Source: a virus (lineage: Duplodnaviria; Heunggongvirae; Uroviricota; Caudoviricetes). Taken from it: a stretch of DNA of 23,006 bases. Below, in pieces: positions 3,460-9,339 of the stretch (position 1 is its first letter; each line of letters starts with the position of its first letter). A program made the position numbers and the translations under genes. The stretch is from the IMG/VR virus record IMGVR_UViG_2617270967_000008. One strand, given 5' to 3'. Below the pieces are notes generated by a model that saw nothing but the letters and a program-made list of their open reading frames with translations, was not told the origin of the DNA and made no database searches.

Positions 3460-6581
<3,122 letters not shown>

Positions 6582-6607
<26 letters not shown>

Positions 6608-7127
6608 TCAGCAACCCCGGTATCAGTTCATCCAGCGCGGCTGCTTTGTTCATGGCTTTGATGATATCCCGTTTCAGGAAATCAACATGTCGGTTTTCCA
6701 GTTCCGGAAAACGCCGCTGTACCGAGAGAGGGATCCCGTCAAGAATACTGGCAATTTCACCTGCGATCCGTGACAGCACGAAAGTACAGAATGCGGTTTC
6801 CACCACCTCTGCGGAGTCTCTGGCATTCTTCAGCTCCTGTGCGTCGGCCTGCGCACGCGTAAGTCGATGGCGTTCGTACTCAATAGTCCCAGGCTGGAGA
6901 TCTGCCTCACTGGCAGCCCTGTAATCCTCAACCTCTTTACGGAGTTTTTCATTTTCGATATCAGCTTCCCTCTGCGCATACCACTGAATTGCCATGGCGG
7001 TATCAAATACAGATTCAACGCCCTTACCACCTCCGGAGACGCAAGGGAGTCCCTGAGACTGCCAGCGTTCAATCGTTCGCGGATCCACGTTGAAAATTTC
7101 GGCAAGTTTCTTTTTATTAACCTTCAT
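6582..7127 (-). CDS. nu1: Terminase small subunit Nu1
   Basis: 181 aa with an N-terminal winged-HTH; the C-terminal two thirds are near-identical to lambda Nu1 as recalled. Confidence 0.95.
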
Positions 7128-7129
7128 GA

Positions 7130-7345
7130 AACAGTCTCACAATAAATACAGGGGCCGACATGAAAGTGCCCGAAAATGACTTTTTTAGGCGTTTTCATGT
7201 CGGACCTTTTACGGATTCGATATTAGAAAAAACAAATAGTTATGTTCGAGAAGTACCGACATGATTTTCCCCGGAAAATTTTCATAAATAGCGAAAACCC
7301 GCGAGGTCGCCGCCCCGTAACGGCCCGGATCGCCGGAAAGGACCC
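7130..7345. other. cos site (cosB between Nu1 and cosN; cosN 12-nt cohesive end at 7304-7315; cosQ side to ~7345)
   Basis: Reverse complement of 7271-7315 reads GGGCGGCGACCTCGCGGGTTTTCGCTATTTATGAAAATTTTCCGG, the lambda left-end sequence beginning with the cohesive end. Confidence 0.85.
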
Positions 7346-7521
7346 ACGAAATGATAATGATTATCATCTATATAAGGTTTATCACAACATGTGTGTACGC
7401 CATCAAACCACGAGAAATAATCAATTATGACGCAGGTATCGTATTGATTGATCTGCATCAAATTAACGTAAAAGCAACTTCAGATAATACAAATCAGCAA
7501 CACTGAATATGGGGAAACATT

Positions 7522-7722
7522 ATGTCATCAAAGAACAGAACCCGCAGAACAACAACCCGCAACATCCGATTTCCAAACCAGATGATTGAACAAATTAACA
7601 TCGCTCTTGATCTGAAAGGTTCAGGAAACTTTTCAGCGTGGGTTATTGAAGCCTGCAGGAGAAGGCTGGCAACAGATGCAACGCATCTGCGCCCGGCCAG
7701 CATGAAAAATAACGAGAAATGA
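7522..7722 (+). CDS. Small ribbon-helix-helix-like protein, homologue of the small ORF at the lambda right end
   Basis: MSSKNRTRRTTTRNIRFPNQMIEQINIALD...SAWVIEACRRRL matches the lambda right-end ORF from memory; strand-helix-helix pattern. A Fur-box-like GATAATGATTATCATC lies upstream near 7350. Confidence 0.65.
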   Translation: MSSKNRTRRTTTRNIRFPNQMIEQINIALDLKGSGNFSAWVIEACRRRLATDATHLRPASMKNNEK

Positions 7723-7853: not shown

Positions 7854-8180
7854 TCAGGGTGCAGAAGGACTAAAGATAAACGTTTTCTTCACGCCTTTAC
7901 ACGGCCTGTCCTTCTCAAATCGCCATTTTGCCATCGCCTTTACAACCTGCTCATCAAACAAATGGTGCGGCTCTGAACGGATAAACTCAATTCGGGTGAC
8001 AGTACCATCAGCACCAATATCAAACTTCACATCAACCCGTCCCTTTATATAATTTGCCGCTGCATAGGCCGGATATTGTGGTAATGCCTTAACCAACTGT
8101 CGGGGCATATCTGTTTTATGTTGCGTACAGCCCATAACCAGAGAAGACAACAAAATAATTAACGGAAGGTTTCTTTTCAT
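7854..8180 (-). CDS. Lipoprotein with TonB C-terminal-domain-like region (moron at the bor-equivalent position)
   Basis: Signal peptide plus lipobox (LVMGC); YPAYAAANYIKGRVDVKFDIGADGTVTRIEFIRSEPHHLFDEQVVKAMAKWRFE aligns to the TonB C-terminal motif pattern. Start ambiguous (8186 or 8180). Confidence 0.65.
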   Translation of the reverse strand: MKRNLPLIILLSSLVMGCTQHKTDMPRQLVKALPQYPAYAAANYIKGRVDVKFDIGADGTVTRIEFIRSEPHHLFDEQVVKAMAKWRFEKDRPCKGVKKTFIFSPSAP

Positions 8181-8196
8181 TTTCATTCCCGGCACA

Positions 8197-8217
8197 GATA
8201 AGAATAAGTCTTATTCT
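8197..8217. promoter_or_regulatory. Perfect inverted repeat AGAATAAG-T-CTTATTCT (with GATA prefix) at the putative -10/+1 of the lipoprotein gene; operator-like, weakly Fur-box-like
   Basis: Direct reading: 8201-8208 is the reverse complement of 8210-8217; sits 11-30 nt upstream of the lipoprotein start on the minus strand. Confidence 0.5.
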
Positions 8218-8524
8218 AACAATGCCACCCTGTCGGTCATCAATCCTCTGCTTAATGGCAACGACAATTATCCGACTTAAATCACAAATCAGACACATGA
8301 CATAACAGAGCTTGCGAGGTAACACATCGTCCGGTTTCTTCCACCATCGCACCGGACCAGCGACCATGAGGGGACAACGCCGCGCTCCGTTAACACGGTA
8401 AACCCCGGTGTGTATCGTTTTTGATTATCCCCGCACACTCGCGCAGAGGAGTCTCCCGGTCGGGCTGCGGTCTCTGTTAATGCGGGGATACGGCGACAAT
8501 ACCGCGCATGGTTAATAAGGTCGC

Positions 8525-8749
8525 TCAACACACTGGCTGTAATGCAGCGGATACCATGCGGCATTTAGCGGCATTCATCGTACACTCAACGGTTAGCTCT
8601 TCATTCGTGGCATTCACCTGAAAGGTCCGGGAGTGTAATTGCGTACATTTACCACTGAACGAACCTTCAACAAGAACACGACCACGCTGCAAAATACGGA
8701 ACGGAATTGTTCCCTGAAAAGGCTTTACGGTTACCAGTAATTTCTTCAT
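8525..8749 (-). CDS. Hypothetical 74-aa protein downstream of Rz
   Basis: ORF with GGAGA 4 nt upstream of ATG 8749; no signal peptide, no recognisable motif. Confidence 0.4.
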   Translation of the reverse strand: MKKLLVTVKPFQGTIPFRILQRGRVLVEGSFSGKCTQLHSRTFQVNATNEELTVECTMNAAKCRMVSAALQPVC

Positions 8750-8772
8750 GCATTCTCCGGATAACAAAAATA

Positions 8773-9240
8773 CTAGTTAATACACTGAGTGCGGATATAG
8801 TCCTGCGCCCCTTCCAGTTGCTTCTGCATTGTCATCAACCGCTCTCTGAGGGTGAAATAATCCCGTTCAGCGGTGTCTGCCAGTCGGGGGCCGGTTGCAT
8901 TATCCACGCGGGCGGTGCCGGTGGCTTCACGCACGGAACCTGGACAGGTGGCGTTGATACGCAGGCTGCGGCGACCAGCGGCAACGTCAGCGCGCAGAGT
9001 TTCATTTTCAGCTCTCGCATCGGCTAACTCCTTTGTGTATTTTTCATCCAGCGCAGCAACATCACGCTGACGCTGCTGCATGTCAGTAATGGTTGTGTTT
9101 GCCAGCTCCAGCTCTCTGGCTTTTTTATCGCGCTGCGCTTTGTAGGTGATGGCGTTATCGCGGTAATGATTCAGCCCCAGACTAAGCACACCACAGGCTA
9201 CCAGCAGGACAATAATCACCACACACAGAACACGGTTCAT
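8773..9240 (-). CDS. Rz: Rz i-spanin
   Basis: [16 protein letters not shown]...[15 protein letters not shown]...QKQLEG matches lambda Rz; N-terminal TM; start at ATG 9240 (MNRVLCVV) with a GGTGGTGA RBS. Confidence 0.9.
8835..9020 (-). CDS. Rz1: Rz1 o-spanin lipoprotein, embedded in +1 frame within Rz
   Basis: [25 protein letters not shown]...[30 protein letters not shown] matches lambda Rz1 including lipobox and proline-rich region. Confidence 0.85.
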
Positions 9241-9339
9241 ATCACCACCAACGGATTGCCCAGACCAGAACAGCAATGGCCACAATACGAATGGCAAATG
9301 CCATTGCCCGAATAAGTTCAGCACTCATCTTTTTAAAGT

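Follow-up and report, generated by a model that had tools for sequence, protein, structure and literature searches.

The lambda-like prophage in IMG/VR record IMGVR_UViG_2617270967_000008, of which we analysed one stretch of 23,006 nucleotides (the window), encodes on its minus strand a predicted lipoprotein of 108 residues that carries a complete TonB C-terminal (TonB_C) domain and is not a TonB energy transducer. We propose that this protein acts as an outer-membrane-tethered decoy for TonB boxes that blocks or damps TonB-dependent entry, a reading to which we assign a probability of about 0.45. A first-pass annotation of the same DNA had described a lipoprotein with a TonB C-terminal-like domain; this description was confirmed by the lipobox (VMGC) together with profile and structure matches.

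Two of the checks proposed with that annotation, a Pfam TonB_C search and a structure prediction, came out in favour of the domain. Pfam PF03544 (TonB_C) matched the protein with an E-value of 1.3e-14, at 54.8 bits well above the curated cut-off of 24.6, and TIGR01352 matched with an E-value of 1.1e-14 (54.5 bits; cut-off 27.1). TonB_C and TonB_2 were the sole matches in the Pfam scan of the protein. Searching the Protein Data Bank (PDB) with phmmer placed residues 26–104 on residues 153–231 of E. coli TonB with zero gaps (E ~1e-16) and 36–41% identity over these 79 ungapped residues. The best NCBIfam matches were to the C-terminal ~80 positions of enterobacterial TonB equivalog models (PRK10819 models, E 1e-20), which at 49–74 bits failed the full-length cut-offs of 265–448. 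An AlphaFold2 (AF2) model had a block-mean predicted local distance difference test score (pLDDT) of 89–95 for residues 31–100 and 82 for residues 101–108, and the order of its elements (helix 38–42, strands 47–55 and 61–70, helix 76–84, strand 94–103) reproduces the alpha1-beta1-beta2-alpha2-beta3 arrangement of TonB. Foldseek superposed this model best on transporter-bound states of TonB: the best PDB matches were 2gsk_B, TonB with BtuB (root-mean-square deviation (rmsd) 1.0 Å, template modelling (TM) score 0.89), and 2grx_C, TonB with FhuA (rmsd 1.2 Å, TM 0.93), with both TM-scores normalised on the target. The TonB fragment that was co-crystallised with BtuB in 2gsk_B (81 residues) has boundaries equal to those of the window domain. 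In the BFVD viral structure library, the protein had no significant structural match.

Residues of the TonB core are retained. Y163, F180, G186, F202, W213, Y215 and F230 of TonB correspond to Y36, F53, G59, F75, W86, F88 and F103 of the window protein, and the YP motif is also kept (P164 to P37). Four of these positions (Y36, G59, F75, W86) do not vary across the family alignment; conservation is at least 90% at P37 and F103, and Tyr alternates with Phe at F53 and F88. The protein therefore resembles the C-terminal domain of E. coli TonB (~150–239; 1U07, 1XX3, 2GSK chain B, 2GRX chain C) in fold, YP motif and core aromatics, but lacks the last four TonB residues, the N-terminal transmembrane helix and the coupling to ExbB/ExbD. 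It is not a TonB because the inner-membrane anchor and the proline-rich spacer are both absent. Instead, it has a lipoprotein signal peptide and a seven-residue tether that point to the opposite membrane.

The N-terminus reads MKRNLPLIILLSSLVMG-C18-TQHKTDM-P26...P108, and the signal peptide comprises a positive n-region (MKRN), a hydrophobic h-region (LPLIILLSSL) and VMG before C18, with TQHKTDM as the tether between C18 and the domain. The program that listed open reading frames (ORFs) had started the gene at GTG 8195. We corrected the start to ATG 8180, because a GGGA ribosome-binding site lies 6 nt upstream of it, because the RefSeq product (WP_000828068.1, 100% identical to the window protein) has 108 residues, and because the alternative ATG at 8186 is lost in relatives, being mutated to ATA in five related loci in which 8180 is kept. 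The span 7854–8230 that had been given for the lipoprotein contains the gene, but the coding sequence itself ends at 8180 and the rest includes a palindrome. In an alignment of 13 homologues (34–88% identity), Gly17 and Cys18 are invariant, and the +2 residue, Thr in the window protein, is Ser, Ala or Thr in the homologues and never Asp. According to the Lol sorting rule, Asp at +2 is the signal for retention in the inner membrane, and lipoproteins with another residue go to the outer membrane. By this rule, the TonB_C protein is predicted to be a lipoprotein of the inner leaflet of the outer membrane.

In the mechanism that we favour, the gene would be transcribed from its own extended −10 promoter, while also being co-directional with the late operon, and the lipoprotein would be sorted by Lol. 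The mature part, Cys18–Pro108, would then present a complete TonB C-terminal domain on a short tether at the periplasmic face of the outer membrane, and beta3, the strand at the exposed edge of the domain, could pair with the TonB boxes of transporters such as FhuA, BtuB, FepA and Cir. As the domain would transmit no energy, it would compete with host TonB, and TonB-dependent phages (T1, phi80 type), group B colicins and microcins would be damped or blocked, at the cost to the lysogen of some siderophore and B12 uptake. We favour a competitor for TonB boxes because the protein joins a TonB-box-binding domain to a short tether and has no connection to ExbB/ExbD.

The first-pass annotation had also suggested a lipid-anchored mimic that binds TonB boxes, and this idea has precedents. 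Exported periplasmic TonB fragments (33–239, 103–239 and 122–239) inhibit TonB-dependent transport; with such engineered fragments, ferrichrome transport is lost and growth becomes iron-deficient (summarised in bioRxiv 10.1101/2020.01.05.895219). Like the window protein, these dominant-negative fragments are periplasmic TonB C-terminal domains without the energy-coupling N-terminus. They are, however, soluble, longer and over-expressed, whereas the window protein is shorter, predicted to be lipid-anchored and driven by a modest native promoter. Moreover, their inhibition was partly ascribed to interference with the ExbD–TonB interaction, a contact that may be out of reach for a domain anchored in the outer membrane. 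An analogy is offered by Llp of phage T5, a lipoprotein in the inner leaflet of the outer membrane, which acts on FhuA from the periplasm and blocks it (bioRxiv 10.64898/2026.03.26.714494). Llp and Cor (phi80, N15, HK022) are small phage-encoded lipoproteins of this leaflet, and both block phage entry at the periplasmic face of FhuA; we found no homology to either, the Pfam scan returning only TonB_C and TonB_2. Llp and Cor have one specific target, FhuA, which is the receptor of the phage itself; binding to TonB boxes would instead affect the transporter class as a whole, and the window gene is not confined to phages with one kind of packaging or head module.

In an exhaustive HMMER search, the sequences nearest to the protein, apart from those in E. 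coli prophages, were other TonB_C lipoproteins of 107–133 residues. In a homologue scan with one genome per species and a query alignment of seven sequences, we recovered homologues in Raoultella, Klebsiella, Erwinia and Serratia. Those of Raoultella and Klebsiella are chromosomal and syntenic beside lacI-lacZ across species, with ~80% DNA identity, and the Serratia homologue is flanked by a ycgN-like gene on one side and dsbB-nhaB-fadR on the other; phage genes are absent from the vicinity of all of these. By tblastn, no lysis or terminase genes were detected beside the homologues of Raoultella, Klebsiella, Serratia and Erwinia, which is how they came to be recognised as chromosomal. These chromosomal lipoproteins (L006–L012, L014; P0035–P0040) share 38–50% full-length identity with the window protein, including the signal peptide, and have the same lipobox and a length of ~108–111 residues; they lie outside prophages, whereas the window-type gene is prophage-borne.

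Near-consensus Fur boxes precede the homologues in Raoultella, Klebsiella and Serratia. We compared sequences with the 19-bp Fur consensus GATAATGATAATCATTATC or the 7-1-7 motif TGATAATnATTATCA, as in PMC11353095, and found the boxes 29–65 nt upstream of the chromosomal homologues (at ~5918–5986 in loci L006, L007, L009, L010 and L011, and at 5927–5941 in L014). The Erwinia locus (L012) had no near-consensus Fur box upstream of its homologue. TGA(G/T)AATTATTATCA, present in five chromosomal loci at −29 or −30, has 0–1 mismatch to the 7-1-7 motif, and the Serratia box, GATAATGATTTTCATTACC, matches the 19-bp consensus at 17/19 positions. In each 12-kb locus the Fur box is the sole such site, and none of 200 shuffles gave one (0/200). 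MAFFT places the chromosomal boxes in alignment with the window palindrome. Agreement with the consensus is 15–17/19 for the chromosomal loci, 14/19 for a mobile Raoultella copy, 13/19 for the window, 12/19 for a Klebsiella phage and 9/19 for phage 21. From this series we infer that the ancestral family was Fur-regulated and that the phage-borne copies have largely escaped that control. The Fur boxes before the chromosomal homologues are a new observation, and suggest that in Klebsiella, Raoultella and Serratia the iron-starvation regulon includes a member not described before, the chromosomal TonB_C lipoprotein.

Three further features of these loci and of the window touch on Fur and on the mobility of the gene. 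Directly downstream of the Raoultella chromosomal TonB_C gene lies a gene for a DUF1440 (YagU-like) membrane protein (L006 6738–7301), and Klebsiella phage ST13-OXA48phi12.4 has a DUF1440 homologue (L005 277–903; 82.5% over 97 nt) ~3 kb from its TonB_C gene, which hints that the morons may have been captured from a DUF1440-bearing chromosomal region. The same Klebsiella phage (L005 3795–4337) and Raoultella planticola (L008 5795–6337) share only a 543-bp cassette with 86% identity, consisting of the TonB_C gene and ~200 nt upstream; its flanks are unrelated, and the gene therefore moves as a minimal cassette. Within the window, ATGATAATGATTATCAT at 7352–7366 (palindrome 7351–7367) is a perfect match to the Fur 7-1-7 motif and the sole zero-mismatch site. 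It lies 6 nt outside cosQ and 156 nt upstream of ylcI, is overlapped by a minus-strand promoter-like site (7387–7360), and recurs at the corresponding position in E. coli ARS-C301 (L002) and 13 of 80 related viral loci.

Several points weigh against a TonB-box decoy. In the phmmer alignment, R166 of TonB is replaced by a Tyr that is invariant in the family, and Q160 by Leu, Tyr or His; we take these two to be side chains through which TonB contacts the transporters in 2GRX and 2GSK. As TonB-box recognition in these structures occurs mainly through backbone beta-pairing, their loss is weak counter-evidence. The literature yielded no functional study and no binding or phenotype data for any family member, PADLOC has no model for, and reported nothing significant on, the TonB_C protein, and the published inhibitory TonB fragments exceed the window domain in length and were over-expressed. 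Finally, the chromosomal homologues are conserved, syntenic and apparently iron-starvation-induced, which would be odd for a pure poison of iron uptake. Membership of a plain poison in the Fur regulon would be so odd that a subtler, possibly positive or gating role is suggested.

Such a role defines an alternative that we consider unlikely, yet the best placed of those that compete with the decoy: the protein would be a Fur-controlled accessory of the TonB system that parks or protects the TonB boxes of unliganded transporters, rations TonB or gates. On a prophage, it would alter the iron economy of the lysogen, and hence fitness or virulence, and exclude no invaders. The near-perfect Fur boxes in Raoultella, Klebsiella and Serratia and the chromosomal synteny beside lacI-lacZ fit this view, as does the presence in the Perceval prophage of E. 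coli LF82 of the iron/manganese importer sitABCD. However, a domain without a link to ExbB/ExbD cannot energise transport, so that a positive role needs an unknown mechanism, and the progressive loss of the Fur box on phage copies points to a changed use on phages.

A different partner altogether is rather improbable. The TonB_C fold might serve as a generic periplasmic binding module, for peptidoglycan, an envelope protein or a substrate, in a lipoprotein that strengthens or alters the envelope as Bor/Iss does in serum resistance. Besides the missing R166 and Q160 side chains, it can be held in favour of this view that the TonB_C domain of FusB binds ferredoxin (9hi3), that AgmX/PglI and GltG of gliding motility are among the NCBIfam matches, and that the gene sits beside bor/iss in many prophages. 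Against it, the nearest similarity of the window protein is to enterobacterial TonB itself, the best superposition is on the transporter-bound state, and with TonB-box pairing mainly through the backbone the diverged side chains weigh little.

The window reads the prophage in reverse, in the order terminase large subunit, Nu1, cosN, cosQ, ylcI/ynfO, TonB_C gene, Rz/Rz1 and endolysin, so that the TonB_C gene lies between Rz and cos and is co-directional with the late operon. The statement that it occupies the position of lambda bor holds in part. Both genes belong to the same Rz-to-cos moron region and encode lysogenic-conversion lipoproteins, but bor is antisense to the late genes and thus on the opposite strand, the two proteins are unrelated in sequence, and the window itself has no bor. 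The Pfam scan gave no match to the Bor family, and a bor21 query was without match in related loci. Phage 21, Perceval (LF82) and E. coli ATCC 11775 each have bor/iss next to a TonB_C gene of 72% identity, and a replacement of bor by the TonB_C gene was rejected on account of this coexistence. The gene occurs with lambda-type and with HNH/933W-type packaging modules; in phages whose head modules differ, it is found between Rz and the gene for the small terminase subunit, which fits a moron better than a morphogenesis or lysis gene. Among 80 viral loci from IMG/VR, most relatives share with the window only the block from ~7500 to ~8550 (the gene plus ylcI), a pattern of typical moron mosaicism. 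Judged by this genomic distribution, the TonB_C gene is a lysogenic-conversion moron of lambdoid prophages.

The position of the gene also raises the question of a late function in the lytic cycle, either as a spanin or lysis accessory or as an Llp-like block of progeny adsorption to debris, which we regard as improbable. The gene follows Rz/Rz1 directly and runs in the direction of the late operon, no strong terminator separating it from Rz/Rz1, and PHROG 1267, labelled 'Rz-like spanin', matches the protein at E 5.7e-43. However, the window has a complete Rz/Rz1 pair of its own, the protein is without a C-terminal hydrophobic or membrane segment and without spanin-like features, homologues stand behind Fur boxes in non-phage loci, and the occurrence of the cassette with unrelated head modules leaves it untied to one packaging module. 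A homologue is, in addition, expressed in lysogens: that of Perceval (PERCE_65, LF82_160) was transcribed 8-fold above the prophage background in LF82 lysogens, LF82_160 being listed among the genes at least 5-fold above that background (PMC9928086). A spanin identity was rejected on the separate Rz/Rz1 pair, the globular TonB_C fold and the homologues outside phages, and the PHROG 1267 label is probably a positional mis-annotation, which will propagate through phage annotation pipelines.

Of 5426 complete E. coli genomes, 415 have the window-type gene under the annotation 'TonB family protein', and 1225 have the phage 21-type form (72% identity; CPT_21_73 of phage 21, PERCE_65 of Perceval, WP_000830178.1) under this name. 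An intact full-length copy is present in 1636 complete E. coli genomes, and about 30% carry the gene, including O157:H7 and other Shiga-toxin lysogens, the type strain and the adherent-invasive E. coli (AIEC) strain LF82. The curated phage 21 record names its product 'TonB C-terminal domain protein' (CPT_21_73) and the Perceval record has 'TonB fragment' (PERCE_65, LF82_160); older labels in ev017, Perceval and CP-933N are 'TonB fragment' and 'partial tonB-like membrane protein'. The gene is thus already known to annotation pipelines and is not a new one. For the two E. coli clades (window versus phage 21 homologue), the ratio of non-synonymous to synonymous substitution rates (dN/dS) is 0.13 at a dS of ~1.3, and it is 0.09–0.30 among other homologues; these ratios indicate purifying selection on the protein, as opposed to a tonB fragment in decay. 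A functionless remnant of a captured tonB, to which the 'fragment' and 'partial' labels and some frameshifted or truncated copies (P0012–P0021, L162) would point, is very hard to reconcile with this selection, with the number of intact copies and with a complete domain behind a bespoke signal peptide whose invariant lipobox stands in place of the TonB N-terminus.

If competition for TonB boxes is indeed the function, the gene would be a prophage determinant of sensitivity to TonB-dependent phages, colicins, microcins and siderophore–antibiotic conjugates; it would also be a determinant of iron acquisition in the gut and the natural equivalent of TonB fragments engineered as dominant negatives. 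The hypothesis is testable with standard plating, colicin and 55Fe-uptake assays. A wider reading, which we advance as doubtful, is that Enterobacterales possess an unrecognised, Fur-controlled class of outer-membrane 'anti-TonB' lipoproteins occupying the TonB boxes of transporters, and that lambdoid prophages captured them, uncoupled them from Fur and spread them through ~30% of E. coli as a broad shield against TonB-dependent phages, group B colicins and microcins. If true, this would be the first exclusion factor aimed at the energy-coupling step of a whole receptor class and not at a single receptor.

The promoter of the gene was located by pattern scan and by comparison with relatives. 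On the gene's strand, an extended −10 element (TGtTAGAAT) lies at 8221–8213. Between the window and phage 21, ATTGTyAGAATAAGAC (8223–8208) is the sole conserved stretch in ~100 nt of diverged promoter-proximal sequence, and the block of ribosome-binding site and start codon is conserved as well. TGTTAGAAT is invariant in the 80 viral loci; the −35 hexamer varies (ATGGCC, ATGATC, ATGCCC) and is probably dispensable with an extended −10. We infer a real, −35-independent promoter with a transcription start near 8205. The 17-bp perfect inverted repeat described in the first-pass annotation is present exactly at 8201–8217, and its overlap with the −10/+1 region was likewise found, the left arm being made up of the last five bases of the −10 and the start region.

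The proposal that this palindrome mediates repressor control was not supported. The left arm alone is conserved in the 72%-identical sister clade, and the right arm belongs to 13 inserted nucleotides missing from the phage 21 clade; the phage 21 type has the same length, lipobox and genomic slot but lacks the right arm and ylcI and has bor upstream. Within the window clade, the 80 loci contained two pair-breaking variants and no compensatory change, and substitutions were at least as dense inside the palindrome as in its flanks. As the right arm lies in an indel and pairing is broken without compensation, an operator role is unsupported, and nothing points to selection on the symmetry itself. 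A palindrome of this size is not improbable by itself: counting perfect inverted repeats with arms of 8 nt or more, the window has 4 with loops of 0–3 nt against 1.5 ± 1.3 in shuffles, and 13 with loops of 0–10 nt against 3.9 ± 2.8. Elsewhere in IMG/VR, the exact 17-mer was confined to this cassette or to the inside of unrelated coding sequence, and a recurring operator was rejected on this ground. An RNA hairpin or terminator was also discarded, as the palindrome has a 1-nt loop, an AT-rich stem and no T-run and was not flagged by the terminator scan; a hairpin in the mRNA of the gene was discarded because the predicted start lies inside the palindrome and the left arm would be missing. The palindrome is best read as a −10/+1 region joined to a lineage-specific insertion. 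It had also been called loosely Fur-box-like. The best match of the window promoter to the 19-bp consensus is a weak 13/19 at 8197–8215, equalled at only 9 window positions, and the palindrome fails the 7-1-7 motif with 5–6 mismatches; what speaks for a Fur connection is indirect, through the Fur boxes of the chromosomal homologues, and the palindrome may be a decayed Fur site.

The YlcI/YnfO protein encoded next to the TonB_C gene is a candidate for a regulator that binds the palindrome. Its gene travels with the palindrome cassette, being present in 38 of 40 palindrome-bearing TonB_C loci and absent from the phage 21 type, including phage 21 and Perceval. AF2 predicted, with moderate confidence (pLDDT 68), an extended N-terminus followed by two helices. 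Foldseek matches to ribbon-helix-helix-type folds (TCP domain, ParD2) had E-values of at least 4, and a HicB-like PHROG matched at E 0.007. These are weak, non-significant hints, and a ribbon-helix-helix repressor of the palindrome is an unproven lead. In one viral contig (L162, ~2700–2790), the promoter, the palindrome and the first codons (ATGAAAATGAAAATGTAA...) are kept before the sequences diverge, the TonB_C gene being deleted or replaced shortly after its start.

Table 1. Coordinates, in the window, of the TonB_C lipoprotein gene, its promoter region and neighbouring features.
Feature	Coordinates	Strand	Basis or remark
TonB_C lipoprotein coding sequence, 108 residues	7854..8180	-	stop 7854-7856, start ATG 8180-8178
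Lipoprotein signal peptide, residues 1-18	8127..8180	-	lipobox V15-M16-G17-C18 8138-8127, Cys18 codon 8129-8127; read from sequence
TonB C-terminal domain, residues 26-104 (equivalent to E. coli TonB 153-231)	7869..8105	-	ungapped phmmer alignment to 1u07, 2gsk, 2grx
Ribosome-binding site GGGA	8187..8190	-	6 nt upstream of ATG 8180; read from sequence
Perfect 8-1-8 palindrome AGAATAAG-T-CTTATTCT, 17 bp	8201..8217	.	exact in window
Conserved 16-nt island ATTGTTAGAATAAGAC	8208..8223	-	extended -10 (TG 8221-8220, TAGAAT 8218-8213) and predicted start region
Weak -35-like hexamer ATGACC	8235..8240	-	pattern scan
Conserved lambdoid intergenic element	8325..8510	-	non-coding, ~185 nt; upstream mosaic boundary of moron
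YlcI/YnfO (DUF3950) gene	7522..7722	+	Pfam DUF3950 E 4.8e-19; convergent with TonB_C gene, in ~1-kb shared block
Terminase large subunit	4682-6607		
Nu1	6582-7127		
cosN (AGGTCGCCGCCC)	7304-7315		
cosQ	7339-7345		
Rz/Rz1 pair	8773-9324 and 8835-9020		

Upstream of the gene, the intergenic element shows greater conservation between the window and phage 21 than does the TonB_C gene itself. It was found in 398 phage records (Stx (Shiga toxin) phages, lambda-like phages, 933W), with or without the TonB_C gene. A structured RNA was rejected, as Rfam gave no match for the element and the z-score of its RNA fold was −0.16; the element is probably a recombination linker that bounds the moron, or a DNA-level signal. 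Between this element and Rz, where phage 21 has bor, the minus strand has an ORF of 80 codons (8525–8767) that is without RefSeq annotation, matches only positions 98–172 of the 291-position PHROG 2571 (unknown function) and looks like a truncated remnant.

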